Below, piece after piece: positions 26-63,006 of a stretch of DNA of 64,000 nt; position 1 is the first letter of the stretch, and every line of letters starts with the position of its first letter. The notes under the pieces are model-generated. The model was not told the origin of the DNA. It searched no databases and worked only from the letters and a program-made list of their open reading frames with translations. The translations under genes and the position numbers were made by a program. Location: assembly GCA_014360195.1 (NCBI GenBank), contig JACIXY010000001.1:186989-250988 (forward strand), in the 5' to 3' direction. This DNA is from Bacillota bacterium. GTDB lineage: Bacteria; Bacillota; SHA-98; UBA4971.

Positions 26-155
26 TTAAGTGAGGGTGCGTTACTCCTTGTCTCTGTTCCAGTAGTTGCCGGGTTGCCGGTGTTGTACTCTCTCTTTGAG
101 TCACTGGCAACCCCTCCCAGAAGTCGGAGGCGTTTCTGCACCCTCACTTGGCACC
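26..155 (+). repeat. MITE-like element, short form (~130 bp), both terminal inverted repeats present (AAGTGAGGGTGCG ... GCACCCTCACTT)
   Basis: Near-identical to copies at 42036-42160 and 62878-63006 (reverse orientation). Core CCAGTAGTTGCCGGGTTGCCGGTGTTGtACTCTCTCTTTGAGTCAcTGGCAACCCCTCCCAgAAGTCGG. Confidence 0.8.
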
Positions 156-195
156 CTGGCGGGGCCGGCACCCGCGATCCGCCGACCCCGGCAAT

Positions 196-224
196 TGACG
201 CCGGGATCGGCCTGTGCTAAACTG
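196..224 (+). promoter_or_regulatory. sigma-A-like promoter (TTGACG-N17-TAAACT) upstream of tyrS
   Basis: -35/-10 hexamers with 17-nt spacer about 25 nt upstream of the tyrS start. No T-box motif (AGGGTGGNACCGCG) was found in this leader. Confidence 0.4.
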
Positions 225-247
225 AACGTAACGCTGGCTGGGAGGTA

Positions 248-1474
248 TTGGTGGTGACTGTTGAGGAGCAGGTGAACATCCTGAAGAGGAAGGCCGCGGA
301 GATAGTGTCAGAGGAAGACCTCCGTGAGAAGCTGGAGCGGGCATCGCGCGCGTCCCGGCCGCTCCGCGTGAAGCTCGGGCTGGACCCGTCGGCGCCCGAT
401 ATTCACCTCGGGCATGCAGTGGTCCTCCGGAAGCTGCGGGAGTTCCAGGACCTCGGTCACGAGGTCGTCCTGGTGGTTGGGGACTTCACAGGGCGCATCG
501 GTGATCCCACGGGGAAGTCGGAGACGAGGCGGCAGCTTTCAGTGGACGAGGTCACGAAGAACGCTCGTACATACCAGGATCAGGCATACAAGATCCTGGA
601 CCCCGCGAGGACCAGGATCGCGTTCAACGGCGAGTGGCTTTCGAAACTTACGTTTGAGGATGTCATCAACCTTGCGTCCAAATACACCGTGGCGAGAATG
701 CTCGAGCGGGACGAGTTCAGCGCGAGGTTCCGCGAGGAGCAGCCCATATACATCCACGAGTTCTTCTACCCGTTCATGCAGGCGTACGACTCCATTGCGC
801 TCAACGCCGATGTCGAGCTTGGCGGCACGGACCAGAAGTTCAACATCCTCTTCGGGAGGATGCTGCAGCGCGAGTACGGCCAGGAGCCTCAGGTTGCCAT
901 GCTCATGCCCATCCTCGTCGGCACGGATGGTGTCAACAAGATGAGCAAGAGCCTGGGCAATTACATCGGCGTGGCGGAGCCACCATCGCAGATGTACGGC
1001 AAGACCATGTCCATATCCGATGATGTCATGATGACTTTCTACGAGCTTGCGACCACGCTTCCCGATGAGGAAATAGAGGCGGTGCGCGAGGCGCTTGCCT
1101 CCGGGCGGCTGCACCCGAGGGACGCGAAGAGGCGCCTCGCCCGCGAGATCGTGGCGCTTTACCACGGCCCGGAGGCCGCGAAGGCCGCTGAGGAGGAGTT
1201 CGATGCCGTGTTCCGTAAAGGGGAGCTGCCGGAGGACGTTCCCGAGGTGGTCATCTCCAGCGCGGACCTGGCCGACGGTAAGATGTGGTGTCCGAAGCTC
1301 CTCGTGGCTGCGGGCCTCGTCGACAGCACCAGCGAGGCACGCCGCCTCATCAACCAGAGGGCGGTGAGGGTTGACAGCGAGAGGGTGACGGACCCGCAGG
1401 CGTGCGTGGCGGTCCGGCCGGGCATGGTGGTCCGGGTGGGGAAGCGCAGGTTCGCAAGGGTCCGTCTGAACTAG
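248..1474 (+). CDS. tyrS: tyrosine--tRNA ligase (class I, HLGH and KMSKS motifs, C-terminal S4 domain)
   Basis: ORF translation contains HLGHAVVLRKL, KMSKSLGN and a C-terminal S4-like RLINQRAVRVD. The real start is probably the GTG at 251/254 behind the RBS GGGAGGT. Confidence 0.9.
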   Translation: MVVTVEEQVNILKRKAAEIVSEEDLREKLERASRASRPLRVKLGLDPSAPDIHLGHAVVLRKLREFQDLGHEVVLVVGDFTGRIGDPTGKSETRRQLSVDEVTKNARTYQDQAYKILDPARTRIAFNGEWLSKLTFEDVINLASKYTVARMLERDEFSARFREEQPIYIHEFFYPFMQAYDSIALNADVELGGTDQKFNILFGRMLQREYGQEPQVAMLMPILVGTDGVNKMSKSLGNYIGVAEPPSQMYGKTMSISDDVMMTFYELATTLPDEEIEAVREALASGRLHPRDAKRRLAREIVALYHGPEAAKAAEEEFDAVFRKGELPEDVPEVVISSADLADGKMWCPKLLVAAGLVDSTSEARRLINQRAVRVDSERVTDPQACVAVRPGMVVRVGKRRFARVRLN

Positions 1475-1476
1475 TC

Positions 1477-1546
1477 GGGTCGCCGGTGTTGCATCCTCTC
1501 TTTGAGTCGCCGGCAACCCCAAAGGCGCGAGAGTTTTTCGCACTTG
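1477..1546 (+). repeat. degenerate short-form MITE-like remnant immediately after tyrS stop
   Basis: GTCGCCGGTGTTGCATCCTCTCTTTGAGTCGCCGGCAACCCCAAAGG resembles the core of the repeat family. TIRs are absent. Confidence 0.5.
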
Positions 1547-2060
1547 CTCTTGGAGCAGAATTGCTCAGTGCGGCCCATGCGTCGGACAAAGTGGCGGAAA
1601 GGCGACCAGGATGACGGCTGGCGGTGGGCGCTCGGCGTCAACGGGGGTCGGCTAGACCGGGTTTTGGTGCCGCCAGGTATGGCCTTTTTGTGGGGCATGG
1701 CGAATATGATCTACCACGAACTCCTTGCGACTCCCCGAGCTACGCGCGAGGGCAAAGGAGGGACGTGGGCACATGGCTTATCGCCGCTGGTCGAGCGGCC
1801 TTCCCCGCCACGCGTGGTGGGTGGAGCTTGGCCGGGCTCTTTCGAGAGCTTTCGGGCCCAGGTGGCCTGCGCGGCGAAGACCAAGGATCCAGGCCCCGTC
1901 CAGGCCCGTCGTCCCGGCGCCAGGTGGGCATGGCCGAAGGGGGCTTCCCGGCCTGGGGCGCGATGGAGGAAGCCGTACCCTTGCGGCCCGGCGGCCGCCC
2001 ACACGAAGGTGGCCTGGGCTCCCGCGTCGCCCGCCGTGGTGGTACAGGCTGCTGAGGCGG

Positions 2061-2693: not shown

Positions 2694-2820
2694 AGGGTGC
2701 TGCTTTTCGGTCCGGTCTGCGCATTTCTCTCCCAGCCAGTCTCCCGCGCCGGCAAGCCGTATGAATTCGAGCCCCCGATCCTCGAGGCCCGGAAGGAATC
2801 TGCAGGATCGAGGAGAATTT

Positions 2821-3516: not shown

Positions 3517-3601
3517 CCCGCGCCCGCCTGCCGATTGCGACACAAAAGCGACCCCGGACAAGGGTTCCGGGGTCGCGGCATCATGTTACTTTGCCCGGTT
3601 T

Positions 3602-5278
<1,677 letters not shown>

Positions 5279-5560: not shown

Positions 5561-5586
5561 TCGTCATACCTCCTCTGGGCTGAAAT

Positions 5587-5613: not shown

Positions 5614-5625
5614 CAATCCGATACC

Positions 5626-7424: not shown

Positions 7425-7623
7425 TAAGCGAGGGTGCGTTAGTTCTCGCCCCTCTTCCAGTAGTTGCCGGGTTGCCGGTGTTGCACTCGGGGACGGCGCC
7501 CCAAGCGGGGCGCGCTTCGCCAAAATCCGGCCCGTCTGGCTAGGCAGCCGGATTTTGACACCGCTCGTGCAATCACCGGCAACCCCTCCCAAGAGTCGGG
7601 AGCATTTCTGCACCCTCATTTAG
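7425..7623 (+). repeat. MITE-like element, long form (~200 bp) with central hairpin module
   Basis: TIRs AAGCGAGGGTGCG ... GCACCCTCATTT. Core GTTGCCGGTGTTGCACTCGGGGACGGCGCCCCAAGCGGGGCGCGCTTCGCCAAAATCCGGCCCGTCTGGCTAGGCAGCCGGATTTTGACACC...CACCGGCAACCCCTCCCAAGAGTCGGGAGCATTTCTGCACCCTCA. About 90% identical to copies at 17908 and 44758. Confidence 0.85.
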
Positions 7624-7793
7624 GACGCCAGGTCGCCAGGTCGCCGCCTCGTCGCGTCGCATCGTGTCGCATTGCGTCGCGCCGCGCTGCCGGGCTCCTT
7701 CCGCTCCTTGCGCGTGGATGTGGGGTCTGTCCGCGGCAAAGCTGGCGCAAAGGTACCACTTTCCCCTGGCCACGATTGAGGGAGGTAAGAGCC

Positions 7794-9168: not shown

Positions 9169-9417
9169 ACACGGTGGGCAGCGCGGCAGGGACCCAACAC
9201 GGAGCCGGCCCGGCGCACGCGGCGCACGCGAACGGGCGCGGGCAGGCGTGCTGCGCATCCCGAGGGCCCTCAGGGAATATCACCCTGGTGGAGCGCGGGT
9301 GGAGCGCGCGGGTGCCCAAGACGCGCATCCCAGGCGCCCGCAGGGGATATCGCATATACTGTGAAAAGCCCGGGAACCCTATGCGCGGTGGGGATGCGAT
9401 TCCCTGGAGGTAGTGCC

Positions 9418-17907: not shown

Positions 17908-18101
17908 TAAGTGAGGGTGTTAGTTCTCGTTCCTTTTCCAGTAGTTGCTGGGTTGGCGGTGTTGCAGTCGGGGACGGCGCCCCAAAGCGGGGCGTGCTTC
18001 GCCAAAATCCGGTCCGTCGGGCGAGTGGCCGGGTTTTGACACCTTTCGTGCAAGCAACGGCAACCCTTTCCCAGAGTCGGGAGCATTTCTACGCCCTCAC
18101 T
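17908..18101 (+). repeat. MITE-like element, long form
   Basis: TIRs TAAGTGAGGGTGT ... ACGCCCTCACTCA. Core matches 7425-7623 with scattered substitutions. Confidence 0.85.
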
Positions 18102-18450
18102 CAGTGGTGCGGTTTGTTGCACGCGAGTGAATTTTCGGGCATATACTGCTTCAAGTATGATATACTATGAGATATGCGAACACGTGGTCCGGTCGACGGC
18201 GCGACAGAGATGCGAAATCTTGAGCATGAGGGAGGATTTTGGCAAGATCCGTCGAATCCTCTACGCCGGTCTTCGTCCAGTTCAAGGCCGTATCGGGAGA
18301 TCGTTGCCCCATGCATACCGAGTCCAGAGAAAGGTTGCTTTCTTTGGGCGGGGCGGCCTGGCAAAAGAGGAAAAATGCCCGTAGTGGCGAAAGAGGAACT
18401 ACAACGAACGCGTCTCGTTGACTTGTGGTGTGGCGAGGAGAACTGGCACA

Positions 18451-21735: not shown

Positions 21736-21810
21736 TCCCTGGTAGCTCAATGGCAGAGCGGCCGGCTGTTAACCGGTAGGTTGCAGGTTCGAGTCCTGCC
21801 CAGGGAGCCA
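21736..21810 (+). tRNA. tRNA-Asn (anticodon GTT)
   Basis: Cloverleaf: acceptor TCCCTGG/CCAGGGA, anticodon loop CTGTTAA, T-loop GGTTCGAGTCC, encoded CCA. Confidence 0.85.
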
Positions 21811-21816
21811 GGAATT

Positions 21817-21892
21817 CGGGCCTATAGCTCAGCGGTAGAGCAACCGGCTCATAACCGGTCGGTCCCTGGTTCGATCCCAGGTGGGCCCACCA
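21817..21892 (+). tRNA. tRNA-Met (anticodon CAT, elongator or Ile2-type, G1:C72)
   Basis: GGGCCTATAGCTCAGCGGTAGAGC...anticodon loop CTCATAA...GGTTCGATCCC...CCA. Confidence 0.85.
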
Positions 21893-24040: not shown

Positions 24041-24430
<390 letters not shown>

Positions 24431-27281: not shown

Positions 27282-27504
27282 ATCCTCCTTGTCTTGAGGT
27301 TTCGAGAGGGGAGCCTCAAGTGAGAACTGCCGGCGGGAAAGCCTATCCGCCCGGACGATGCTTTGGCAAGGACGCTTTCCTCCTTTCGGATGGCTTTTGA
27401 GGTGTGTGGGATTATGTTGTGTCGGCAGCAGCGCTGCCACCTAGTTGTTTGGATATATCGGCACAAATTCCTTCTGTGCGGGGGGCTGTATGGCAGAATT
27501 TGTC

Positions 27505-27534
27505 TTGACAGGAAGGACGGGGGCCTCATATACT
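27505..27534 (+). promoter_or_regulatory. sigma-A promoter TTGACA-N18-TATACT for imuB-like/dnaE2
   Basis: Directly upstream of the LexA box. Confidence 0.55.
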
Positions 27535-27541
27535 ATAAATG

Positions 27542-27555
27542 CGAACAGACGTTCG
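27542..27555 (+). promoter_or_regulatory. LexA (Cheo/SOS) box CGAACAGACGTTCG
   Basis: Perfect match to the Gram-positive consensus CGAACRNRYGTTCG. Positioned at the predicted transcription start of the imuB-like gene. Confidence 0.8.
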
Positions 27556-27575
27556 ACCACACTGCCTCTATCGTC

Positions 27576-29138
27576 ATGAAGGTCATGAAGGTGAGACCCA
27601 TGTCAATGGTGGTGGCGCATACCTGGGTGCCCGGTTTTTATGCGAAAGCCGAGGCTCTATTGAGCCGACATCCGGAGGGGGCGCCCGTGGTGGTGATCGC
27701 AAGGGGTAAGCAGGTGATGGATGCGTCGCCGGGTGCGAGGAAGAGGGGCATAGAGCCGGGGATGTCACTGTCCGCGGCGCGACTCATGTGCCCAGAGATC
27801 ATCGAGGTGGGCTACGTCCCTGAGCGGTACGACAGCCTTGCCGACAGCCTATGGGAGGCATGCGCGCAGTATAGCCCGGCAGTGGAGCCCCTGGCCCAAC
27901 ACGAAGCTTTCATCGACCTTTCAGGATGCGCCGATGTGCCGGGCGTGCTCAAGAGAGTATCTCAGGGTATAGAGGGCATCGTTGGAAGCCGTCCCCTGTT
28001 CGGGGTGGCGCGCTGCAAACTGGTGGCGCGGGTGGCTTCAGGAGTGCTCGAGGAGACAAGGGAGGTTTTGCAGGGCAAAGCACCTGGAGCCTCGTGCCGC
28101 CGCCGGGCGGGGTCCCATCCTGAAGGAGAAAGGCAGGGGAGGCATCTGACGGTCAGCCTGGCGCGGGAGGCCGGGAACGCCCTGATCGTTACCGGGAAGG
28201 AAAAGGAGTTTCTCGCCCCCTTGCCCGTGGGTGTACTCTGGACCATCGATAGAGATGTGATCGAGCGCCTCCTGCGCCTCGGCGTGCAACGGGTGGGCGA
28301 CGTGCAGGCGATGGGGAGATCGGCTCTCGCCGATGCGTTGGGAGAGGCAGGGCACGTTGTTTACGAGTTCAGCCTCGGCACGGATCGTTCGAGGGTGATG
28401 CCTGTCTACCCGAAAGAGGCTGTAACGTTTCGAAAGGCTTTCGACGACGAGGTTTCCGATGAGCCTATCCTGGCTCGCATAGTGGAAGGCGGCGCCGCGT
28501 TCATCGAACAGAGGCTGAGGGCCTGTGCTGTGACGGCCCGCCGGTGGGGTATCGTGCTCGAGTTCGCCAGCAACAGTGGTGCGAGCCAGGTGGCGCGCGA
28601 GCGACGCCTTTCGAAACCGCCGGAGTTCTACGGCGGCGTCCCGGCGATATACAGAAGCCTCCTGAGAGAGGTACTGTCGGCGCCGGGCGGGGCAACACCA
28701 TCACAATCTGAGTCGCCCGGGGCACCTGAATCGCCTGGGTCGTTTGGGTCGGCGTGGGGTCCGGGGCGGCAGGTGACGCGGCGCGAGCCGGCGACATGCG
28801 GGCTGTCCCGTCCTGTGAGAGCGATATCACTTGTAGCAGCCGATCTCGTGCCCACGGTAGCGGCATCGCAGGTGGATATGTTCGACCCGCATATAGCCGT
28901 CGACCCGACCCGAGCCGTCGATGCGGTCGTGGGTCGGGTAAGGGAGAAGTTCGGCGTGAAGAGCCTTTTTCCGGCGAGCCTGCTTGAATGCGACAGAAGA
29001 GATAGACTCCTGCTGGCCTGGGAGGCTTGTTCGTATGAGGAGAGTAAACAGGTCGCTTCAGGTTGTGATGCGAGGAGACCGGCGCCCGGAGAGGTTCTAC
29101 TGGAAACGAAAATGGCTTCGGGTGCTTTCCATTGTTGA
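27576..29138 (+). CDS. imuB: ImuB-like Y-family DNA polymerase homolog (catalytically inactive type)
   Basis: DinB/UmuC-fold similarity (VVIARGKQVMDASPGARKRGIEPGMSLSAARLMCPE...). The DMDCFF acidic catalytic residues are replaced by VVAHTWVPGFYA. The true start may be the ATG at 27600 or 27606. The region upstream of 27576 contains the LexA box and cannot be coding. Confidence 0.7.
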   Translation: MKVMKVRPMSMVVAHTWVPGFYAKAEALLSRHPEGAPVVVIARGKQVMDASPGARKRGIEPGMSLSAARLMCPEIIEVGYVPERYDSLADSLWEACAQYSPAVEPLAQHEAFIDLSGCADVPGVLKRVSQGIEGIVGSRPLFGVARCKLVARVASGVLEETREVLQGKAPGASCRRRAGSHPEGERQGRHLTVSLAREAGNALIVTGKEKEFLAPLPVGVLWTIDRDVIERLLRLGVQRVGDVQAMGRSALADALGEAGHVVYEFSLGTDRSRVMPVYPKEAVTFRKAFDDEVSDEPILARIVEGGAAFIEQRLRACAVTARRWGIVLEFASNSGASQVARERRLSKPPEFYGGVPAIYRSLLREVLSAPGGATPSQSESPGAPESPGSFGSAWGPGRQVTRREPATCGLSRPVRAISLVAADLVPTVAASQVDMFDPHIAVDPTRAVDAVVGRVREKFGVKSLFPASLLECDRRDRLLLAWEACSYEESKQVASGCDARRPAPGEVLLETKMASGAFHC

Positions 29139-29303: not shown

Positions 29304-32300
29304 ATGGGGAAGTTCGCGCATCTCCACGTGCACTCGCATTTCTCATTCCTTGATGGGGCGTCGAGCGTCGAGGCCATTGTGAGGGGCGCGGCGGAGCTTG
29401 GCATGGAGGCCATCGCCGTCACGGACCACGACAACCTCTGCGCGGCGGCGAGGCTCGTCCGGGCCGCCCGGCAGCACGGGATAAAGCCCATCCACGGCGT
29501 CGAGGTCACGCTCGAGGGCGGGAGCCACCTGGTACTTCTGGCGGAAGGGCCCGAGGGCTATGCCAACATCTGCACGATCCTCACCGAGGCTTATATGTCG
29601 AGAGACTGGGAGAGGGCCATCGCGGGCGACGGCGTAGCGCTGTTTTCTAGGAGCCCTAGCGATACGATACTAAGTGAGAGTGCAACACCGGCAACCCGAC
29701 ACCCGCTGGAAAACCGGGAGGAATTAACTAACCTTCGCTTAGGGCCGCCCGGGCGAGCGCTCCCGGCGTCAGGGAGCGAGGTCGTGGCGGAGTTTGCCAG
29801 GCGCCGCCTGGCACCGAGGGTGTCCCTGTCCTCGCTTGAGGAGCACCACAAGGGGGTCATAGCGCTTTCCGGGTGCATCGTGCGGGGCGCCGTTGCAGCA
29901 CTCGTCCGCGCGGGCAGGTACAGGCAGGCGCTGGAGCTTGCCAGGCGGCTTGTGGACATCTTCGGGCGGGCTAGCTTCTACATCGAACTCCAGAGCCTCG
30001 CCATCCCAGGTGGCGACCACCTCATCTCCCGCCTCGTTGAGCTGGCGGAGGAAGTCGGGGTGAGGGTCGTGGCTACCAACGACGTCCACTACTGCAAAAA
30101 ATCGGACTTTGCCATACATGACGTCCTCACCTGTATCCGCACGCTGACGCGGCTCGACGATGTGCATCCTGAGCGGAGGCTCAACGCCGAGAACTACTTG
30201 AAGCCTGTCGAAGAGATGACGTCCCTTTTCCGCCGCTATCCTGAGGCGATAGCAACTGCAGGCGAGATCGCCGACCGGTGCTCTCCCGGGCTTTTGCTCG
30301 ACCAGAGGCTCTTTCCAACCTTTGTCCCTCCAGAGGGGACGGGGACGTCCGCCGAGTACCTCCGACATCTTGTATACGAAGGCGCCTTATCGCGCTATGG
30401 GACTATCACCCCGGCGATAAGGTCGAGGCTCGACCACGAGCTTGACGTCATATGCACCCTCGGGTATGAGGACTACTTTCTCATGGTATGGGACGTTGTG
30501 AACTTCGCCCGGCAAAAGGGGATCCGGTTCGCGGGGAGGGGCTCCGCGGCAGACTCCGCCGTGGCGTATTGCCTTTTCATAACCAGCGTGGACCCGATCG
30601 CCCGCGGCCTTCTCTTCGAGAGATTCCTCAGCCTCGAGCGGGCGCAGAAGCCCGACATCGACATCGACTTCGATGCCCGCAGGCGAGATGATGTGCGGGA
30701 TTACCTGCAGCGCAAGTACGGTCCCGAGCGTGTGGCGACGGTATGCACTTTCAACACGTTTCGAGCGAGGTCTGCCGTGCGCGACGTGGGCAAGGCCATG
30801 GGGCTGCCCCCAGGGGACATAGACCGGCTTGCGAAGCGCCTTCCGCACATGTGCGCAGACGAGATCAGGGTGGCTTTCGAGAGGTACCCCGAGCTTCGCG
30901 AGAGCGGCATCTCCGTGGAGAAATACTTTCGTCTGTTCGATGTATGCCAGGCCCTGGCGGGCGTGCCGCGCCATATCGGCACCCACCTGGGCGGGGTGGT
31001 GGCAAGCCGGGTGCCTCTCGTGAGGGTGACCCCCTTGCAGATGGCGGCGCGGGGCGTAGTCATCACCCAGTTCGACAAGGACGACGTGGAGGAGGTCGGC
31101 CTCATCAAGCTCGATCTGCTGTCGCTGCGCATGCTCGCGGCGGTGGAAGATTCCGTGAGGCTGAGCGGCGTCGATTACCAGCGCATTCCCCTCGACGATG
31201 AGGCCACATACGAGATGCTGAACGCCGGGGAAACGATAGGCGCCTTCCAGCTCGAAAGCCCGGCGCAGCGGGCGCTCCAGGGGCGCCTCGGGGCGAGCAC
31301 CATTGAGGACATCGTGGCGAGCGTGGCGCTCATCCGGCCGGGTCCCGTCCAGGGGAACATGGTGGAGCCGTTCGTCGCAAGGAGGCGGGGGCTTGAGGAC
31401 GTGACTTACGTCCATCCCAGCCTTGAAAGGATCCTTAAAAAAACGTATGGCGTGGTGCTCTACCAGGAGCAGGTGATCGAGATCGCAACGGCGATAGCTG
31501 GCTTCACTCCGGGGGAGTCCGACCGCCTGAGAAAGGTGATGACTCACTACCGCTCCAGGGCCGAGATGGACGAGATAGGGAAGGAATTCGTGAGGAAGGC
31601 GATGGAACATGGAGCCCCCCGGGAGGTCGCCGAGACGGTGCTTTCATACATAGTTGCATACGCAGGGTATGGCTTCTGCGAGGCCCACGCGGCGGCCTTT
31701 GCGGACACCGCCTACAAGACGTCGTACCTTTTGCGCCATTTCCCTGCGGAGTTTTACGCGGCCATCCTGAACAACCAGCCGATGGGGTTCTATCCGCCAA
31801 ACACCATATGCGTGGAGGCCAGACGGCGCGGGGTCCGGATCCTGCCGGTTGACATAAATAGAAGCGCCGAGAGGTTTACTGTCGAGAACGGCGCAATACG
31901 CGTGGGGCTTCTCAGGGTGCGGGGCATAAGCGAGGAGACGGCCGCAAGGATAGTCGCATCCAGAGGGCCGCTGGGGTATGCCTCCATCGAGGACTTCTTC
32001 GCGCGGGTGCCCGTGGATCGCGACCTCCTTGAAAACCTGGTGTTATGCGGCGCATTTGATTCCCTGTGTCCCAACCGCAGGGCTGCGCTTTGGAAGATCG
32101 CAAGGCAGCTGCAAAGAGCGGAGCGGTTGGGAGGTCGGTCGCGTAAGTCGGCGGTGCGGAAGAGGAGTGGAAGCGGCGATGGCCGCGGTGCCATCCCTGG
32201 TTTGGCCCCGCAGCCGTGGCGCAGCCCCAACGATGGCGCTGGCGATGACGTTGGCACCTCTTCCGAAGCCGGCATGCAGGTGCGGAGCACGCAGGCCGGG

Positions 32301-32738
32301 GACGGCGGCTCTCTTCGATCGTTAGGGGATATCCCCGACTTTTCCGAGGTCGATAAGTTCAAGTACGAGTTCTACATACTCGGCCTCCATCCCACGAAGC
32401 ACCCGATGGAGTTCTATCGTAGCTGCCTGGCGAGGGGAGGGGTGCTCACGGCTGCCGCCGCAAAAGAGATGGAGTCCGGCACGAGCGTGCGGGTGGCGGG
32501 AGTGGTGGTGAGGCCGCACCGCCCTCCGACCCGAAGCGGAAGGATCGTGATCTTCTTCTCACTCGAGGACGAGACCGGCCTCATCGACGTGACGGTGTTC
32601 GAGGACGTGTACAGGCAGTGCGGGGGTGTGATGTTCACGAGCCCAATCCTTGTTGTTGAGGGACGCGTGGAGCGGCGGGGGAACATCGTGAGCCTAATTT
32701 CGCACGGCATTCGAAAGGATCTTCCTTGCCAGCATTGA
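29304..32738 (+). CDS. dnaE2: error-prone DNA polymerase III alpha subunit DnaE2 (ImuC)
   Basis: N-terminal PHP domain with the DnaE2-type signature HLHVHSHFSFLDGAS, polymerase core, OB fold. Sits downstream of the imuB-like gene behind a LexA box. 1144 aa including a repeat-derived in-frame insertion. Confidence 0.8.
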   Translation: MGKFAHLHVHSHFSFLDGASSVEAIVRGAAELGMEAIAVTDHDNLCAAARLVRAARQHGIKPIHGVEVTLEGGSHLVLLAEGPEGYANICTILTEAYMSRDWERAIAGDGVALFSRSPSDTILSESATPATRHPLENREELTNLRLGPPGRALPASGSEVVAEFARRRLAPRVSLSSLEEHHKGVIALSGCIVRGAVAALVRAGRYRQALELARRLVDIFGRASFYIELQSLAIPGGDHLISRLVELAEEVGVRVVATNDVHYCKKSDFAIHDVLTCIRTLTRLDDVHPERRLNAENYLKPVEEMTSLFRRYPEAIATAGEIADRCSPGLLLDQRLFPTFVPPEGTGTSAEYLRHLVYEGALSRYGTITPAIRSRLDHELDVICTLGYEDYFLMVWDVVNFARQKGIRFAGRGSAADSAVAYCLFITSVDPIARGLLFERFLSLERAQKPDIDIDFDARRRDDVRDYLQRKYGPERVATVCTFNTFRARSAVRDVGKAMGLPPGDIDRLAKRLPHMCADEIRVAFERYPELRESGISVEKYFRLFDVCQALAGVPRHIGTHLGGVVASRVPLVRVTPLQMAARGVVITQFDKDDVEEVGLIKLDLLSLRMLAAVEDSVRLSGVDYQRIPLDDEATYEMLNAGETIGAFQLESPAQRALQGRLGASTIEDIVASVALIRPGPVQGNMVEPFVARRRGLEDVTYVHPSLERILKKTYGVVLYQEQVIEIATAIAGFTPGESDRLRKVMTHYRSRAEMDEIGKEFVRKAMEHGAPREVAETVLSYIVAYAGYGFCEAHAAAFADTAYKTSYLLRHFPAEFYAAILNNQPMGFYPPNTICVEARRRGVRILPVDINRSAERFTVENGAIRVGLLRVRGISEETAARIVASRGPLGYASIEDFFARVPVDRDLLENLVLCGAFDSLCPNRRAALWKIARQLQRAERLGGRSRKSAVRKRSGSGDGRGAIPGLAPQPWRSPNDGAGDDVGTSSEAGMQVRSTQAGDGGSLRSLGDIPDFSEVDKFKYEFYILGLHPTKHPMEFYRSCLARGGVLTAAAAKEMESGTSVRVAGVVVRPHRPPTRSGRIVIFFSLEDETGLIDVTVFEDVYRQCGGVMFTSPILVVEGRVERRGNIVSLISHGIRKDLPCQH
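29671..29743 (-). repeat. truncated MITE-like element (TIR + one arm, ~73 bp) inserted in-frame within dnaE2 coding sequence
   Basis: TAAGTGAGAGTGCAACACCGGCAACCCGACACCCGCTGGAAAACCGGGAGGAATTAACTAACCTTCGCTTAGG aligns to the right half of the short-form copies (62878-63006). The ORF stays open and encodes ...ILSESATPATRHPLENREELTNLRLGPP... Confidence 0.7.
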
Positions 32739-32956
32739 ACTACTCAGTCGAAGCGCGAGATCAGAAATCAGTATTGCTGCCCCAGGGGCTCGCGGTGTGC
32801 GTACTCCTTTGTCAAATGTCAAGAGCCCCGTTGCGTAAGCGCCGGCGACATGGAAGATCACGCCAAGCTGGCGCAGCCCAATGAACACGGCCGTTGGCTT
32901 TCCTACAGTAGATCGCCAGAAATCCGCGCTGCTTTTCAGCGTGCAGGGGCTCGCCA

Positions 32957-33081
32957 GGGTTGCCGGTGTTGCACTCCGGGGACGGCGCGCTCGCGGCGCG
33001 CCTCGTTCGAATTTAGCGCACGGGCCAGCAAAATTCTCGACGCCCCGCCCTAGCAAGCACCGGCAACCCTAACACCCTCAA
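32957..33081 (+). repeat. MITE-like element, divergent long-form core lacking left TIR
   Basis: GGTTGCCGGTGTTGCACTCCGGGGACGGCGCGCTCGCGGCGCGCCTCG...CAGCAAAATTCTCGACGCC...CACCGGCAACCCTAACACCCTCAAG. Confidence 0.65.
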
Positions 33082-33285
33082 GAAAAGTGGCGAAAACTTA
33101 TGGCGCCATACTTAAGTGACTGCCAACCTGCGTTCCCAGACCGGCTGTGTGATGGGAGTATGCGCCACGGTAGGGCATTAACCTGGAAGAAGGCAGCGGT
33201 CTCGTCAACCGGATGCAGGGAGACAAGCCCCATCGCCGGGGACTGTGACTGCCCTGCTGCCAGTTACAGGTGAGGAGTGATACGA

Positions 33286-34446: not shown

Positions 34447-34659
34447 GACATTCTTCCAGTACTGAGAAGGAGTTCCATGATTCCCGTGGAATAATCTGCA
34501 GTGGGAAATGCCGGTGGTCATCGCAAAGTCCACACTGGCTCAAGTTGCAAGAGGCTTGAAGTGGGAGGTGAACGCAGGCAGAAAAGCAACAAGCGTGTAG
34601 AGGCCGTTTCTGAGGATCGTCAGTGATTCCCCGAACGACCACAAGAAGGAGGTAGTGAG

Positions 34660-41537: not shown

Positions 41538-41542
41538 CAGCC

Positions 41543-42035: not shown

Positions 42036-42160
42036 TAAATGGGGGTGCAGAAATACTCCCGACTTTTGGGAAGGGTTGCCGGTGACTCAAAGAGAGAGTG
42101 CAACACCGGCAACCCGGCAACTACTGAGTGTGACAGGGACTTACGCAGCCTCACGTAGCT
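42036..42160 (-). repeat. MITE-like element, short form, 12 bp downstream of the beta-lactamase-like gene stop
   Basis: CTAAATGGGGGTGCAGAAATACTCCCGACTTTTGGGAAGGGTTGCCGGTGACTCAAAGAGAGAGTGCAACACCGGCAACCCGGCAACTACTG...CGCAGCCTCACGTAG. Confidence 0.8.
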
Positions 42161-43408: not shown

Positions 43409-44749
43409 ATGGGTGAGCCAGCGAAAGCGCCGGGCGACATCGTGAGGGGGCCTGGAGGCGCGGCCTGTCCGCAGCCCCTGCTTGGGGCGAAGCCGCAGGC
43501 CAGCGTGGTCGAGGACTTCGCCAGGTATGTGTCCCCCGGGAGGGTGGAGGTGTACCGAGCCCTCGGGTTCGACGCGGTTCCTGGCAGGCGCGAAGGGGTG
43601 TACGTCTGGGACCTAGACGGCAGGCGATACATCAACTGCCGGTCGAGCGGGGGCGTGTTTAACCTTGGGCATCGCCCACCCGCAGTGGTGAACGCGCTCA
43701 AGGAAGCGCTCGATGTCCTCGACATCGGGGACCACATGCTCCTCAGCGAACAGCGGGCCAGGCTCGCTGCCAGGCTCGCTGAGCTTACCCCCGGCGACAT
43801 CACGTATAGCTTTTTCACACCGAGCGGCGGCGAGGCGTGCGATGTCGCCATCAAGCTGGCCCGGGGTTACACGGGCCGCCCAGGCGTTGTCTCGGCGATC
43901 GACGGTTACCATGGTCACACGGGATTTGCCCTTTCGGCAGGGGATACCCGCTTCAAGAGGCACTTTGAGCCGCTCATGCCTGGGTTCACCCAGGTGCCTT
44001 TCGGGGACATCGACGCCGTAAGGCGCGCGGTTGATGAGACCACGGCCGCCGTGATATTCGAAACCATCCCGGCCACGGCGGGGATCATCATTCCGCCTGA
44101 CGACTTCTACCCGGCTGTCAGGAAGATCTGCGATAGCAGAGGCGCCCTACTCATCCTCGACGAGGTGCAGGCCGGGCTCGGGCGGACAGGCCGCCTGTGG
44201 GCCATCGATGAGTGGGGCGTGGTCCCGGACATCCTGGTCCTGGGCAAGGGGATGAGCGGCGGGGTTTACCCTCTATCTGCGGTGTGCTATAGGGAGCACG
44301 TCGATGAGTTCTTCAAGCGGAACCCGTTTGTGCACCTGACCTCTTTCGGTGGCGCGGACCTGGGGTGCGTGTGCGCCCTGGCGATGCTTGACGAGATCTG
44401 CCGCCCTGGGTTCCTGGACCACGTGGAGGAGATGGGCGTGCGTTTCGAGCGCGGGTTCGCGCGGCTGAAAGAGAAACACCCGGAGACCGTGGCGGGCTGG
44501 AGGCGGCGCGGGCTGATGATGGCCTTCGAGCTTGCGGAGGACAAGCTTGGCCCCATGATGACTTATGCCCTTGGCAAGAACGGTGTAATCGCCGTGTTCT
44601 CCGACTTTCGCCCCAGGGCGATGCAGATAATGCCGCCCCTCATAATACAGCCTGCCGAGGTGGACGAGGTGCTCGACGCGATGGACCGGGCGCTTGACCT
44701 GGTGGAGGGCATGGTCGCCGCCGGAGTGCCGGCCCCGTACATCCCTTGA
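43409..44749 (+). CDS. class-III (omega) aminotransferase, PLP-dependent
   Basis: Class III fold motifs (GGVFNLGHRPP, ILDEVQAGLGRTGRLWA, lysine in LVLGKGMSGG). The ATG at 43409 follows RBS GGAGGAG. The upstream in-frame extension is Gly/Pro-rich and looks non-coding. Confidence 0.8.
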   Translation: MGEPAKAPGDIVRGPGGAACPQPLLGAKPQASVVEDFARYVSPGRVEVYRALGFDAVPGRREGVYVWDLDGRRYINCRSSGGVFNLGHRPPAVVNALKEALDVLDIGDHMLLSEQRARLAARLAELTPGDITYSFFTPSGGEACDVAIKLARGYTGRPGVVSAIDGYHGHTGFALSAGDTRFKRHFEPLMPGFTQVPFGDIDAVRRAVDETTAAVIFETIPATAGIIIPPDDFYPAVRKICDSRGALLILDEVQAGLGRTGRLWAIDEWGVVPDILVLGKGMSGGVYPLSAVCYREHVDEFFKRNPFVHLTSFGGADLGCVCALAMLDEICRPGFLDHVEEMGVRFERGFARLKEKHPETVAGWRRRGLMMAFELAEDKLGPMMTYALGKNGVIAVFSDFRPRAMQIMPPLIIQPAEVDEVLDAMDRALDLVEGMVAAGVPAPYIP

Positions 44750-44757
44750 AAGCGACT

Positions 44758-44955
44758 GAGCGAAGGTGCGTTAGTCCTCGTCCCTCTGCCAGTAGTTGGC
44801 GGGTTGCCGGTGTTGCACTCGGGGACGGCGCCCCAAGCGGGGCGCGCTTCGCCAAAACCGGGCCCGTCGGGCAAGTGGCCGGATTTTGACACCCCTCGGG
44901 CAGGCACCGGCAACCCCTCCCAAAAGTCGGGAGCATTTCTGCACCCCACTTAGAG
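44758..44955 (+). repeat. MITE-like element, long form, ending 20 bp before the start of the RPH-like gene
   Basis: TIRs GAGCGAAGGTGCG ... GCACCCCACTTAGAG. Core about 92% identical to 7425-7623. Confidence 0.85.
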
Positions 44956-49269: not shown

Positions 49270-49440
49270 GGGAAGCTCCCCCCAACTATGAATTCGGGAT
49301 AATACCCTAGTATTTCAGTCGGGTTTGTTGTATTATAACACACGAGGGCGCGATGCGCTAGGGGTTGGACGCCCGGCCGCCGGACCAGGCTCTGCAACCA
49401 GCAGGGCGCGCAGAGCGCAGGCCGAGGTTACGAGGAGACG

Positions 49441-49468
49441 GACAGGAACTTACGCACCCTCACTTAGG
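49441..49468. repeat. solo terminal-inverted-repeat fragment of the MITE-like family in the cysK 5' region
   Basis: GACAGGAACTTACGCACCCTCACTTAGG matches the arm-TIR junction of the other copies. Confidence 0.5.
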
Positions 49469-50498: not shown

Positions 50499-50648
50499 GC
50501 GGCGCTTCGTTACAAGACGCAGCCGCTGGGCGCTTGTCGGTCGAGGTCCCGCCGTCTCGCCGAGGCATCTCTACCGACCACGGCTGCTATGTGTCCTCTG
50601 TTCTGCGCATAATAGCCACAGAGCAAAAGAACGTGGCAACGCAAAGCT

Positions 50649-50797
50649 AGGTGAGGGTTCAGCAATGCTTCCCACTTGTGGGAAGGGTTGCCGGTGGTTG
50701 CACGAGGGATGTCAAAACCCGGCCACTCGCCTGACGGGCCGGATTTCGGCGAAGTGACCCCGCTGGAGGCGCCATCCCCGAGTGCAAAACCGCCGCT
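50649..50797 (-). repeat. MITE-like element, long form, degenerate at one end
   Basis: TAGGTGAGGGTTCAGCAATGCTTCCCACTTGTGGGAAGGGTTGCCGGTGGTTGCACGAGGGATGTCAAAACCCGGCC...GGCCGGATTTCGGCGAAG... is the reverse complement of the 7425-7623 core. Confidence 0.75.
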
Positions 50798-50872
50798 AAC
50801 CCACCAGATGTGGGCACACTGCGAGGAACCAATGAGTCCTTACTCAGCTGCGCAGGACGGAGGCTGATACAG

Positions 50873-51823: not shown

Positions 51824-52076
51824 CCCATAGCGTGGAGGGAATTCCATCGTGGGAGTGGAAAGAAGAGGGCAGCGGGAAGAGGTCCTGGAGCGAAGCATCA
51901 CGCGGGAGGAGGATGGACTGGTGAAAGAGGAGTGCACACTGGTGGACGACGGTGCGGGCGACGCTGCGTCCGCCGGGTCCGGGCCCGTGAGGAGCGCAGC
52001 CGACGAATGTCCCGTGATGCTGCCTGAGGCGCACAGGGAGGGCGGTCAGGACGGCGATGTGCCAGGGAAGGCACGG

Positions 52077-54698
52077 ATGCCAGGGCCGAGCCCGGGGGCT
52101 GCCGGGTCTCGCGGTGGCGAGAGGCGCATCACGCTCCGGATCACCGGAATGACGTGCGCGTCGTGCGCCGCCAGGGTCGAGCGAGCGCTCGCGAGGTCCG
52201 AGGGCGTGCTCTCGGCCCGCGTCAACCTTGCCACCGAGCGCGCTACCGTTGTGTACGACCCGTCCCGCACTAGCGCGTCCGTGCTCGTCGACAGGGTCCG
52301 CGAGGCTGGCTATGACGTGGGCCTCGCCACTGTCACCCTCGTTGTCCCGGGCATGACGTGCGCCTCATGCGTAGCCAGGGTCGAGCGGGCGCTTCGGCGC
52401 GCCCCGGGCGTCATCGACGCAGCAGTAAATCTTGCCACCGAGAGGGCCACGGTCCGCTACAGCCCCGACGAGACCTCTCCTGCCGATCTTGTGAGAGTCG
52501 TCCACGATGCGGGGTACGAGGCCCGCGAGGTCCGCGAAGGTGAAGAGGCGGGTGCCGCGAAGGACAGGGAAGAGCGCCGTCGCGAAGCCGAGATAAGGCG
52601 CCAGAGGGCCCTTTTTGTCCTTGCGGCGGCTTTGTCGGCGCCCCTCCTCACTCTCATGCTTTCCCACCTCTTGGGTGTGCACCTGCCCTCGCCTTTCACC
52701 GACCCTCTCTTCCAATTCGCCCTCGCCACGCCGGTGCAGTTCGTGGCCGGGTGGCAGTTCTACACAGGGGCGCTGGCGGCTCTTCGCGCGCGCTCCCCGA
52801 ATATGGACGTGCTCGTTGCACTGGGCACCACGGCGGCATATGGGTTCAGCGTATACCAGACGTTCGTGGGTCGAGGCCACGTCTACTACGAGTCCTCAGC
52901 CGTGGTCATCACCCTTGTGCTTCTCGGGCGGCTCCTCGAGGCCCGGGCGAAGGGCAGGACCTCTGAGGCTATAAGAAAGCTCATGGGCCTTGCGCCCCGA
53001 GTTGCGCACGTGGTGCGCGATGGCAAGGAAGTGGACGTGCCCACGGACGAGGTGCGGGTGGGCGACGTAGTTGTCGTGAAGCCCGGCGAGAGGATACCGG
53101 TGGACGGGGTTATACTCGAGGGCACCTCGGTAGTGGACGAGTCCATGCTCACCGGCGAAAGCATCCCCGTCGAGAAGGGCCCCGGCGACGAGGTCACCGG
53201 GGCGACGGTCAACAGGCACGGGTCGTTCAAACTCCGTGCGACCAGGGTGGGAAGGGACACCGTTCTCTCCCAGATCGTACGGATGGTGGAAGAGGCGCAG
53301 GGGTCGAAAGCGCCCATCCAGCGCGTCGCCGACGTCGTCGCAGGGTACTTCGTCCCGGTGGTGCTTGGGGTGGCGCTCGTGGCCCTCGTAGGGTGGCTCA
53401 TCGCCACGGGTGATCCCGGCCGCGCGTTCTTTGCGTTCACGGCGGTGCTGGTGATCGCGTGCCCGTGCGCCCTCGGCCTTGCCACGCCGACTGCCATCAT
53501 GGTGGGCACAGGGAGGGGAGCTGAAGCTGGCATCCTCATCCGTGGCGCGGAGCATCTCGAAAGGGCGCACAAGATCGATACCGTGGTGTTCGATAAGACC
53601 GGGACCATCACCAGGGGCGAGCCGGAGGTGGTAAGCGAGGCAACGGCCCGAGCTGCGGGAACGTCAACAGCCGCGGTTGTGGCAACGGCAACGGCTGCAC
53701 CTGCGACGGCGGCAACGGCCGGGGTTACGACCGCGGCCGGGATCCCAGCTGGGGTTGCGCCCGCGGCAGAGCGGGCAGCAGCAGGAGACGCGTCGGCCAC
53801 ACCACGGGCGCAGGTCGGGCCTCGCGGCGGGCGCGAGCCGGCCCGCGAGATGCTGAGGCTGGCGGCGTCGGCCGAGATGCGGTCTGAGCACCCGCTTGGC
53901 GCGGCCATCGTGCGGCGGGCCCACGCCCTCGGGATCGAGCCGGCGGAGCCCACGCAGTTCGAGGCAATCCCGGGGAAGGGCATCCGCGCCCAGGTGGACG
54001 GCACCGTCGTACTCGTCGGGACGCGACGTCTTCTTGAGGAGAACGGCGTGGACGTGCCTTGCGGTCTTGATGAGGTACGGCACTCCATGGAGGCGCAGGG
54101 GCAGACCGCGATGCTCGTGGCGGCGGACGGACAGGCCCTCGGTGTCATCGGCGTGGCTGATACTGTGAAGGAGACTTCGCGCGAGGCCATCAGGGCCCTT
54201 CGTGCCCTGGGCGTGGACGTGGTCATGATAACGGGCGACAACGAGCGCACGGCCCGGGCCATCGCGCGCCAGGTGGGCATCGAGAGGGTGCTCGCAGAGG
54301 TGCTCCCGGGCGACAAGGCGAGGGAGGTGGAGCGGCTGCGCGCCGAGGGCAGGGTCGTGGCCATGGTCGGCGACGGCATCAACGACGCGCCGGCCCTCGC
54401 CGCGGCTGATGTCGGGATAGCCATGGGGACCGGCACCGACATAGCCATGGAAGCGGCGGATATCACGCTCATTCGAGGGGACCTTCGCGCCGTGGCCGCG
54501 GCCATCCGCCTCAGCCGACGCACTATGGCAACTATCCGCCAGAACCTGTTCTGGGCCTTCATCTACAATGTAATTGGCATCCCACTCGCGGCTTTCGGCC
54601 TTCTCTCCCCGGTGATCGCCGGGGCGGCCATGGCGTTCTCATCGGTGTCGGTCGTGACCAACTCCCTCAGGTTGCGCCGCTTCGACCCGCTCAGGTAG
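52077..54698 (+). CDS. copA: copper-translocating P1B-type ATPase with two N-terminal HMA domains
   Basis: Two [15 protein letters not shown] metal-binding domains, CPC ([12 protein letters not shown]), [15 protein letters not shown]. Contains an Ala/Thr-rich low-complexity insertion in the N-domain. The ORF is open from 51849, but the first 75 codons look non-coding. An ATG at 52077 or 52017 is more plausible. Confidence 0.85.
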
Positions 54699-57623: not shown

Positions 57624-57662
57624 GCTGACGATGCCTCCCTTGTGCGTTGGCGCCGCTCGCTG

Positions 57663-61799: not shown

Positions 61800-61805
61800 T
61801 ACGGG

Positions 61806-62618
61806 ATGTTTGTGGCGGGAATAGACGTGGGGTCAACAACCACGAAGGCTGTCCTCCTGAGTGACGGGAAGCTTGCGGGGACGCACGCGATGCCCACGGG
61901 GGTGGACCTTGCCGCCGCGGCTGACGAGTGCCTTCGTGTGATTTGCCGCGCGGCTGGTGTGGGCCCTGACAGGCTTGCGGCCCTCGTGGCGACCGGGTAT
62001 GGCAGGGACAGGGTGACCGGTGCCGCGAGGACGGTGACCGAGATCACGTGCCACGCCCGCGGCGCGCGGGCCCTCGTCCCGTCGGCGCGGGTGGTGGTAG
62101 ACGTTGGAGGCCAGGATTCGAAAGTCATCCGGCTGGACGATGACGGCATGGTCGCGGACTTCGTGATGAACGACAAGTGCGCGGCGGGCACCGGCAGGTT
62201 TCTCGAGGTGATGGCCGCGAGGCTGAACGTTCCGCTGGAGGAGTTCGGCATGAGGTGGCGAAGGGCGAAAGAGGCTGCGCGGATCTCCAGCACGTGCACG
62301 GTGTTTGCTGAGTCGGAGGTCATAAGCCTGCTCTCGCGTGGCGTGAGCCCCGAGCCCATAATCAGGGGCCTGTGCGATGCGGTGGCGGATAGACTCGCAG
62401 GGATGGTGCATCGAGTGGGCCTTGGCGGAGGGCTTGTGATGACGGGCGGGGTGAGCCGGAACGAGGGCGTCAGGAGGTCCCTCGAGGAGAAGCTGTTCGC
62501 GCCGGTGACCGTTCCGGAGGGATCCCAGTTTGCCGGGGCGTACGGGGCCGCCCTCATCGCTTTCGAGCTAGGTGAGGGTGCAGAGATGCTTCCGACTTTT
62601 GGGAGAGGTTGCCGGTGA
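61806..62618 (+). CDS. CoA-substrate-specific enzyme activase (HgdC/BadF/BcrAD-type [4Fe-4S] ATPase)
   Basis: IDVGSTTTKAVLL...DVGGQDSKVIRLDDDGMVADFVMNDKCAAGTGRFLEVMA (ASKHA fold with Cys ligands). The last ~16 codons (LGEGAEMLPTFGRGCR*) are encoded by a MITE-like repeat copy. Confidence 0.8.
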   Translation: MFVAGIDVGSTTTKAVLLSDGKLAGTHAMPTGVDLAAAADECLRVICRAAGVGPDRLAALVATGYGRDRVTGAARTVTEITCHARGARALVPSARVVVDVGGQDSKVIRLDDDGMVADFVMNDKCAAGTGRFLEVMAARLNVPLEEFGMRWRRAKEAARISSTCTVFAESEVISLLSRGVSPEPIIRGLCDAVADRLAGMVHRVGLGGGLVMTGGVSRNEGVRRSLEEKLFAPVTVPEGSQFAGAYGAALIAFELGEGAEMLPTFGRGCR

Positions 62619-62650
62619 CTCAAAGAGAGAGTGTGACACTGGAGGTGAGG
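62569..62650 (-). repeat. MITE-like element, short form, 3'-truncated/degenerate, overlapping the activase gene 3' end and supplying its stop codon
   Basis: CTAGGTGAGGGTGCAGAGATGCTTCCGACTTTTGGGAGAGGTTGCCGGTGACTCAAAGAGAGAGTGTGACACTGG. Confidence 0.75.
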
Positions 62651-62877
62651 TCGCAGCGGCTGGAACTCTCGCCCGCATGCCACCGTTGTACATGAGTGGT
62701 TTTCTTCCGACCGCCCGTCGCGGACGTAGACACACGCCGTGCCATCGCCTGTGACGGGCTTTTCGCCGGGTTATCCTGGATCGCGGCTGGTGCAGAGCGT
62801 CCCGAGCCCGCTCCCGATGCCGAGTGCCGCGACCATGAATCGGCGGCGGGCGAAGAGTACCCAAGTGGTCGGCTTGG

Positions 62878-63006
62878 GCTAAGTGACGGTGCAGAAATGT
62901 CCCCGATTTCTGAAAGGGGTTGCCGGTGACTCAAAGGGAGAGAGCAACATCGGCAACCCGGCAACCAGTGGAAAATGGACGAGAACTAACGCACCCTCAC
63001 TTAGCA
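62878..63006 (-). repeat. MITE-like element, short form, intact (both TIRs)
   Basis: CTAAGTGACGGTGCAGAAATGTCCCCGATTTCTGAAAGGGGTTGCCGGTGACTCAAAGGGAGAGAGCAACATCGGCAACCCGGCAACCAGTGG...AACTAACGCACCCTCACTTAGC. Confidence 0.85.

Follow-up and report, generated by a model that had tools for sequence, protein, structure and literature searches.

The RUP element of Streptococcus pneumoniae is a 107-bp non-coding sequence with terminal inverted repeats that inserts at TA and is found in many intergenic copies, and its mobilisation in trans by an IS630-family transposase has been proposed (PMC2229807). RUP is often inserted in other mobile elements and is linked to IS630-Spn1; the Correia/NEMIS elements of Neisseria duplicate TA, carry terminal inverted repeats and form classes of 155 and 107 bp that differ by an internal segment, with transcripts that form long hairpins and some copies fused to open reading frames (ORFs); and the Rickettsia palindromic elements (RPE) can sit in frame in conserved protein genes (PMC2229807). 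Short terminal inverted repeats suffice in cis for transposition of the IS630/ISY100 type (PMC2170065). Here we analysed a 64,000-nt stretch of a Bacillota bacterium genome (contig JACIXY010000001.1 of assembly GCA_014360195.1; hereafter the window), in which 12 loci hold copies or fragments of small inverted-repeat elements. With a probability of roughly 0.7 we read these as transposable elements of the miniature inverted-repeat type (MITEs), that is, non-coding cut-and-paste DNA transposons reliant on a transposase made elsewhere in the genome, which we infer to be of the IS630/Tc1-mariner type.

Like RUP, the elements are small, non-coding and intergenic, carry terminal inverted repeats, insert at TA in a Bacillota host and occur within mobile elements, here within one another. 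Compared by description they differ from RUP, for which a matching insertion sequence is known whereas none was found here in the window or in ~730 kb of related loci, in being GC-rich, 122-124 and 196-213 nt long and built of a palindromic core, a covarying two-hairpin module and several arm families. The duplication of TA, the terminal inverted repeats and the two size classes differing by an internal segment are shared with Correia/NEMIS, but, again by description, the host belongs to another phylum and the module occurs in both orientations and in several families. Functional motifs of the Correia elements are a site for integration host factor (IHF) and RNase III processing. Insertion at TA with TA duplication, a CTAG preference and short terminal inverted repeats recall IS630/ISY100, which in contrast are autonomous, ~0.95-1.2 kb long and transposase-encoding, whereas the elements described here span at most 213 nt without an ORF. 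Furthermore, in the manner of RPE, a dnaE2-like polymerase carries a 69-nt derivative in frame within its PHP domain, although this is the single in-frame intragenic copy, the hosts are unrelated and the two were compared by description. Intergenic palindromic repeats with a mosaic, modular organisation and long persistence across related species are also typical of REP/BIME/REPIN sequences, yet those have no terminal inverted repeats, leave no target duplications and rely on Y1 transposases, while both features are present here.

The elements thus form an undescribed small superfamily within the well-known class of TA-duplicating bacterial MITEs such as RUP or Correia, from which they are set apart by the descriptions of these. 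An earlier note on this DNA had likewise recognised in them no described REP, BIME, RPE or Correia family, in line with our searches: Rfam at gathering score returned only RNase P and tRNAs in the window, and one copy searched at E up to 10 gave best scores of 12-14 bits against thresholds of 37-80, that is, chance level. Comparison of one long copy with plasmid and phage collections by blastn yielded nothing, and among viral contigs the core had 0 matches and the terminus one chance match, to an AT-rich giant-virus contig. The literature offered only background on IS630-type elements and known bacterial MITEs, with nothing under the MAG name UBA6811 (MAG, metagenome-assembled genome). The interest of the elements lies mainly in their modular, structured centre and their abundance in an uncultured lineage, the MITE kind itself being well known.

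Insertion at CTAG and recent movement

The terminal pattern TAAGTGAGGGTGCG with up to two mismatches occurs 11 times in the window against 0.39 occurrences expected by chance, and 0 of 100 shuffles reached 11. All loci listed in the earlier note were recovered by repeat finding, a 12-sequence alignment, profile hidden Markov models (HMMs) and arm BLAST, so that the repeat family it proposed is real. Seven of the 12 loci in 64 kb are full-length copies of one family, F1, four are F1 fragments and one is a full-length copy of a second family, F2. With coordinates running from TA to TA, the two size classes proposed for the family hold for F1 (short, 122-124 nt; long, 196-199 nt), and copies were located on both strands, as claimed. 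Their identity, put at 85-95% before, was lower among full-length window copies, namely 71-88% for long and 78-83% for short forms; some pairs within one related MAG reach 97.5%.

Relatives were sought by scanning an exact 19-mer of the core against 185,579 species genomes, at least 93 stretches of which matched, and loci orthologous to the copy at 7425 by an exact-protein look-up with GroES, which gave ten loci. Pairs of filled and empty sites were then read from gaps between adjacent BLAST alignments (high-scoring segment pairs) of orthologous loci, here designated by L numbers. The long F1 element of 198 nt at 7425-7622 (plus strand; nhmmer E=7e-68), which has duplicated TA flanks and is placed in the gap separating the minus-strand genes prsW and yebC, is a polymorphic insertion: it is present in a 100%-identical Logan contig, and its site is empty in six orthologs (L102, L103, L104, L107, L108 and L111) that are 94-99.6% identical to the window. 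The filled site of the window reads CGCTC-T-TA-[AGCGAGG...CTCATT]-TA-G-GACGCC, and the empty site in L103 and L111 reads CGCTC-C-TA-G-GCCGCC. For F2, the filled site GTGGCGGGAC-C-TA-[AGTAGATGGCC...GGCGCCATACT]-TA-G-GAGCAACTTGCC in L055 corresponds to the empty site GTGGCAGGAT-C-TA-G-GAGCAACTTGCC in L095, with flanks 94-97% identical. Hence F1 and F2 both insert at the central TA of CTAG and duplicate the TA, which answers the question of target-site duplications raised in the earlier note. Moreover, C occupies the position just outside the TA at 94 of 109 termini, the next base out having no comparable bias, and in three loci the TA of a CTAG within F2 forms the junction with an F1 terminus. 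The 14-bp terminal inverted repeat reported before resolves into the 2-bp TA target duplication and an 11-bp inverted repeat, AGTGAGGGTGC, the 14th base differing between the ends. Together with the TA duplication and the empty sites in relatives, these 11-bp repeats bear out the proposed non-autonomous element with terminal inverted repeats.

Since the copy at 7425-7622 is polymorphic among close relatives, the family moved recently. The recent activity claimed for the whole set stands for this copy, absent in six relatives, but not for most others, which are older, being 71-88% identical and in several cases shared with sister species: the copies at 27-150 and 29671 are common to the window and to L007 and L068, respectively, both loci being ~94% identical to the window. 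Among the first loci, simulated F1 empty sites gave no more than self-matches and weak candidates, and exact-protein look-ups with cysE, oppF, nikR and groEL gave contigs ending at elements and no added empty sites. A scan of metagenome contigs for the phosphoenolpyruvate (PEP)-utilising enzyme gave a single useful relative, L096 (73% amino-acid identity), with empty spacers that are too diverged for junctions. In L096 the spacer at the 44757 site is 38 nt long and element-free, and that at the 50648 site measures 196 nt versus 331 nt in the window, with no match to the element. Beside the polymorphic insertion, a short tandem repeat, CAGGTCGC (window 7623-7660), varies between strains, with one copy in L104, two in the window and three in each of L103 and L111. 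The 3' part of prsW adjoining the insertion shares only ~89% identity with L104, as against 99.6% for the flanks, and this sequence pattern suggests a recombination tract around the insertion.

The elements have the general features of MITEs, in that they are shorter than ~300 bp, have no coding capacity of their own, carry terminal inverted repeats and a target duplication, and are dispersed in copies with presence/absence polymorphism. Insertion at TA with a 2-bp TA duplication and the preference for CTAG, the sequence of both clean empty sites, further match MITEs derived from IS630/Tc1-mariner elements, and it is because of TA insertion and duplication at CTAG that we read them as IS630-type. 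Elements of the IS630 family and of the Tc1/mariner type use TA as their target and duplicate it; a transposase bound to the inverted repeats cuts both ends and connects the 3' ends with staggered TA positions (PMC2170065). The mobilising enzyme would accordingly be a DDE transposase of the Tc1/mariner/IS630 type that, bound to the inverted repeats, would cut the element out through double-strand breaks and attach its 3' ends at positions staggered by 2 bp at TA. The central hairpins and core palindrome may be kept because of a role in transposition, for example as a foldback or single-stranded DNA structure or as a site bound by protein, or because of one in the host transcript. IS630 itself reportedly prefers the TA in CTAG, going by the title of the 1991 paper of Tenzen & Ohtsubo.

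Anatomy, families and modular exchange

An F1 element starts with C-TA-AGTGAGGGTGC, followed by the A-arm, GTTAGTTCTCG...CCAGTAGTTGCC, and the left core, GGGTTGCCGGTG TTGCAC. The short form has a 12-nt loop, TCTCTCTTTGAG, and the long form a module of ~85 nt with two hairpins, GCGCCCC-AAGC-GGGGCGC and CAAAATCCGGCC...GGCCGGATTTTG. The right part consists of the core GTGCAA.CACCGGCAACC, the D-arm CTCCC-AAAAGTC-GGGAG CATTTCT and GCACCCTCACT-TA-G, the terminal inverted repeat AGTGAGGGTGC being present at both ends. When the flanks of every core were read, at least four families (F1, F2, F3 and F4) could be told apart by their arms. F2 has arms CTAAGTAGATCGCCAGAAATCCGCGCTGCTTTTCAGCG... and CTAAGTATGGCGCCATAAGTTTTCGCC... 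and termini AGTAGATCGCC / AGTATGGCGCC; the inverted repeats of F2-F4 are family-specific, each starting AGT. The F3 arms hold tandem copies of the terminal 14-mer, which from their sequence look like repeated putative binding sites. Common to all families are the outermost C-TA-AGT, the core palindrome GGGTTGCCGGTG...CACCGGCAACC and a homologous central module. The ~85-nt module is optional, its stems covary between subtypes, and it is found in either orientation relative to the arms (L007 6675-6984 versus window 7425-7622), which fits inversion or re-insertion between the core inverted repeats. Long and short forms thus both exist, as reported before, but the long form is no simple variant, the elements being modular and divided into several families.

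Both strands of the copies fold much better than shuffled sequence (z -3.9 to -7.0; for the copy at 42036-42157, -48.5 to -53.7 kcal/mol with z -3.9 and -4.8), in agreement with the hairpins proposed for single strands, and such folding is expected from nested inverted repeats. Because MAFFT misaligned the two subtypes, RNAalifold did not recover the hairpins, and we therefore used a covariance model of the core and central module, to which 87 copies from all families were aligned. In this alignment 93.4% of cells pair. Pairs changed on both sides number 18, where shuffling gave 10.2 +/- 1.8 and slid controls no more than 9; these 18 are concentrated in the two central hairpins, while the 12-pair core helix essentially never varies on both sides. 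With this excess over the controls, pairing in the centre appears to be maintained, be it relevant at the DNA or at the RNA level. Strand-specific selection on RNA is unsupported, since the G-U and A-C counts are 30 and 31, with no asymmetry by position. The second central hairpin has the layout A-tract, GC stem, T-tract; a role as a terminator is unsupported, the terminator scan giving no call for a hairpin with a long loop and only four T. A parS-like reading of TGTTGCAC in the core was dropped, the half-sites lying in opposite hairpin arms with no contiguous palindrome.

At three loci of two MAGs (L051 5386-5600; L063, in reverse complement; L068 2290-2680) hybrid elements were found: an F2 arm and core give way, at the TA of an internal CTAG, to the D-arm, core and central module of F1, after which comes an F2 arm. 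By their order of parts the hybrids appear to be nested insertions of F1 in F2 followed by recombination between both cores, and they may themselves have spread. On the sequence evidence, then, arms and modules are reshuffled via recombination at the common core, and the elements nest in one another. An unrelated inverted-repeat element of ~109 nt, N (GAGACTGTTGA...TCAACAGTCTC), has inserted time and again at GTGCA(G/T) of the F1 terminal repeat, namely at L007 6860-6970, L016 4540-4655, L031 4180-4290 and L013 3807-3930, and occurs solo at L073 7368-7435 and L084 4116-4230. Its insertions come with a duplication of 6 bp, and the one in L031 repeats a variant base on either side; N does not occur in the window. 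It is conceivable, although we regard it as doubtful, that the core palindrome and the three-way junction with two covarying hairpins constitute a functional module in its own right, carried by diverged MITE families and swapped at the core. Such a module could be a cis structure for transposition, acting through a foldback or single-stranded DNA intermediate or as a host- or transposase-binding site, or alternatively an exapted RNA element shaping the stability or termination of neighbouring transcripts. The modular organisation in several families around a conserved structured centre offers a compact model for what a MITE needs or provides beyond its terminal repeats.

Among the matches listed for the core 19-mer, almost all of the at least 93 stretches belong to ~10 MAGs of uncultured Bacillota, the few matches in coding regions of Clostridia being due to chance. 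Exact copies of window proteins were confined to MAGs that bear the label 'Bacillota bacterium' and to Logan assemblies built from public sequencing runs, and a biogas fermenter is the labelled source of one related contig. The hosts are a group of uncultured Bacillota common in anaerobic digesters. Element-bearing assemblies include GCA_012516125.1/JAAYXB01, JBLNDE01, JASEJE01, GCA_030016665.1/JASEJJ01, DKEX01 and JBLNCC01, and the window's strain is contained in the sequencing runs SRR28822772-775, SRR11866717, SRR29396569 and SRR23823869. One element-bearing MAG is labelled Betaproteobacteria (JBLNCC01, 'Betaproteobacteria bacterium MAG135'; loci L003, L011, L013, L028, L039, L053 and L086), and its loci hold many F1 and F3 copies resembling those of the Bacillota MAGs. 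This label probably reflects misclassification or a binning error rather than inter-phylum transfer.

Competing explanations for the repeats

The palindromic build of the copies recalls REP/REPIN-like palindromes, whose spread is driven by a domesticated Y1 (HUH) transposase present in single copy (RAYT), or PATE-type elements derived from IS200/IS605; both travel as hairpins of single-stranded DNA and leave the short target beside which they insert unduplicated. Every copy here forms a long, imperfect palindrome whose inner hairpin is strongly conserved, CAGTAG in the F1 A-arm is reminiscent of the GTAG head of REP sequences, the families persist across species as REPINs do, and the filled/empty junction formally allows a reading in which an element ending in ...ACTTA was inserted 3' of CTA. 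Such an origin is nevertheless very improbable: true 11-bp terminal inverted repeats with TA at both ends lie inside a pre-existing CTAG, while REPINs and IS200/IS605 are not known to possess terminal inverted repeats or to duplicate their target, and GTAG is present in one arm type only and missing from the other arm families. Pfam detected no Y1_Tnp domain in the window, and the ends, symmetric 11-bp inverted repeats each flanked by TA, depart from those of IS200/IS605-derived PATEs. Alternatively, the copies could be genes for structured non-coding RNAs, or RNA motifs that regulate in cis (for example as stabilisers of mRNA, as terminators or as sites of processing), and would then exist in many copies by function, without transposition. 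Their folds are very stable, compensatory changes between subtypes affect both central hairpins, the core helix sequence is conserved across arm families, and the second central hairpin loosely resembles a bidirectional terminator. F1 copies in tandem gaps also have a modest orientation bias (5 same versus 17 opposite), in counts that are non-independent since they include orthologous copies. But insertion polymorphism and target duplication indicate that copies arose by transposition, and these occur in both orientations, in divergent, tandem and convergent gaps and inside an ORF. With Rfam returning no match, the terminator scan passing over the second hairpin and the G-U and A-C counts even (30 versus 31), we judge it improbable that RNA function explains the copies; it is compatible with secondary exaptation but gives no alternative origin.

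A further alternative would be mobilisation by another DDE family that makes short duplications, such as subgroups of the IS5 family or enzymes of the PIF/Harbinger-like kind. The terminal inverted repeats, the shortness of the duplication and the palindromic nature of the target would all suit such enzymes, and CTAG-like sites are targeted by some IS5-group elements. In both clean cases, however, the duplication is exactly TA, whereas a 3-bp TNA or a 4-bp CTAG duplication would give TAA/TAA or CTAG/CTAG, which was not observed, and TA within CTAG is reportedly the preference of IS630; mobilisation by these families is accordingly unlikely. Several considerations also count against MITEs of the IS630 type. 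We infer that type solely from the TA/CTAG target signature and the inverted repeats, the cognate transposase having been found neither in the window nor in ~730 kb of related loci. In agreement with the absence of a transposase reported earlier, Pfam found no transposase domain in the ~57 window ORFs scanned. In the ~730 kb, no pair of inverted repeats 0.3-6 kb apart encloses a transposase, the pairs enclosing MreB or RsmG genes or being separate elements, and an all-against-all blastp of the predicted proteins gave no multi-copy protein family. Only two junction pairs are clean, while a third, the empty target site at 34541-34544 of the window (no strand), where the ortholog L068 (MAG107) holds a 209-nt F2 copy, is degenerate, with flanks 80-90% identical. 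The TA at both ends may also be read as a TA-ending element inserted 3' of TA without duplication, and 2-4-bp duplications can also be produced by other DDE families, among them some IS5 subgroups. Furthermore, the compensatory changes mostly amount to a few fixed differences between two subtypes and were counted in a model-fitted alignment, the fetching of loci by the exact core 19-mer inflates how conserved the core appears, and copy counts are non-independent since several MAGs have orthologous copies in common.

Copies in the window and their effects on genes

Copies are almost all intergenic, with 98 of 107 complete cores outside called genes where ~82% of the DNA is coding; the remaining nine lie 44-190 nt inside ORF starts, which are probably over-extended. 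The gaps that hold copies are tandem in 55, convergent in 15 and divergent in 9 cases. Purifying selection would exclude copies from coding sequence, save rare insertions in frame or at 3' ends. None of the ORFs of at least 120 aa was internal to an element, the elements being 122-213 nt long.

The short F1 element of 124 nt at 27-150 (plus strand; TA to a degenerate TG) lies upstream of tyrS and was found by arm BLAST and the short nhmmer profile (25-152, E=7e-42); it is the copy shared with L007 (~94% identity), and same-strain Logan contigs break there. Between tyrS and yunB, a core-only remnant at 1477-1519 (strand not assigned), GGGTCGCCGGTG TTGCATC CTCTCTTTGAGT CGCCGGCAACCC, is followed by degraded D-arm traces to ~1547 and is kept in L103, L104, L105, L106 and L109. 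A long F1 copy of 196 nt at 17908-18103 (plus strand; nhmmer E=1.8e-65; covariance-model core match 17951-18065) separates ppdK and dnaG and is also present in L001, a same-strain Logan contig. The feature at 32957-33081, regarded in the earlier note as a partial copy, is the middle of the complete F2 element of 211 nt at 32904-33114 (plus strand), which has other arms, runs D2-arm, core, C2 central module, core, A2-arm and lies between dnaE2 and a liaF-like gene; arm BLAST gave 98% for D2 and 100% for A2, with a covariance-model match at 32958-33068 and the F2 reference in L088. A short F1 copy of 122 nt at 42036-42157 (minus strand; nhmmer E=2.5e-40; arm BLAST) lies 15 nt from the 3' end of a minus-strand beta-lactamase-like gene. 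The long F1 copy of 196 nt at 44757-44952 (plus strand; nhmmer E=1.6e-66) occupies nearly the whole spacer between the aminotransferase gene, which ends at 44749, and the PEP-utilising enzyme gene, which starts at 44975, a spacer of 38 nt in the relative L096. In the divergent cysE/cysK promoter region, a 31-nt A-arm terminus fragment of F1 at 49436-49466 (minus strand) was detected by the terminal pattern, nhmmer and arm BLAST, and Logan contigs break there. Between cysK and spoIID, the copy given earlier as 50649-50797 is real but extends further, being an F1-like long element of 199 nt with a variant A-arm at 50648-50846 (minus strand; nhmmer long profile 50651-50846, E=4.9e-37; covariance-model match at 50686-50801). 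The last full copy, a short F1 element of 124 nt at 62880-63003 (minus strand; nhmmer E=2.9e-41; arm BLAST), lies 47 nt upstream of an ABC-ATPase gene (63050 onward); the minus-strand ORF 62879-63850 that overlaps it has no Pfam match and was outscored in codon scoring by the plus-strand ABC gene.

Two copies alter proteins. The F1 deletion derivative at 29671-29741 (minus strand; 71 nt TA to TA), in which the A-arm and left core are fused to the 3' terminus, is not intergenic but sits in frame within the dnaE2-like ORF 29304-32738, to which it adds a net 69 nt, or 23 codons, that are read through. The insert lies in a loop of the PHP domain, with Pfam PHP and DNA_pol3_alpha domains on both sides, and is kept in L068 (MAG107) and missing from the nearest homologs of a protein search (P0001-P0003, 57% identity), relative to which the MITE remnant falls within an insertion of ~40 residues. 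Contigs of three runs break inside this copy. The polymerase gene follows an imuB-like gene of the IMS family (27363-29138), the two being the usual mutagenesis gene pair. At the other locus, an F1 fragment at 62569-62641 (minus strand; D-arm and half of the short core; nhmmer E=2.2e-17; arm BLAST D1 93%) encodes the last ~17 codons of a BadF/BadG-type ATPase ORF (61806-62618), whose Pfam domain ends at residue 252 of 270. The elements thus alter protein ends and, once, the interior of an error-prone DNA polymerase.

Short-read assemblies of the same strain (Logan contigs L112-L121, L123 and L124) end exactly at the copies at 27-150, 7425, 29671, 42036, 44757 and 49436, which makes the family a main cause of contig breaks in these genomes. 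As a major repeat class of their host group, the elements break short-read assemblies and separate genes that are adjacent in relatives. With the family and its CTAG/TA target known, copies can be masked in annotation, their presence or absence can be used as a strain marker, and the search for the transposase can be guided.

The window has a GC content of 59-67%, and its housekeeping genes lie in a Bacillota-type order (tyrS, yunB, groES/EL, yebC, prsW, recO, glyQS, ppdK, dnaG and sigA), together with genes for RNase P RNA, the imuB-like and dnaE2-like pair, opp, cysE/K, spoIID and others. The genes for RNase P RNA (class A, 299 bits) and for tRNA-Trp, tRNA-Asn and tRNA-Met at 24046-24428, 9262-9339 and 21736-21892 neither adjoin an element nor are broken by one. 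A direct repeat of 121 nt with 70% identity (52129-52249 and 52333-52453), unrelated to the MITEs, lies within a copper/heavy-metal P-type ATPase gene (51849-54698), and it may equal duplicated HMA domains, Pfam reporting two HMA stretches.

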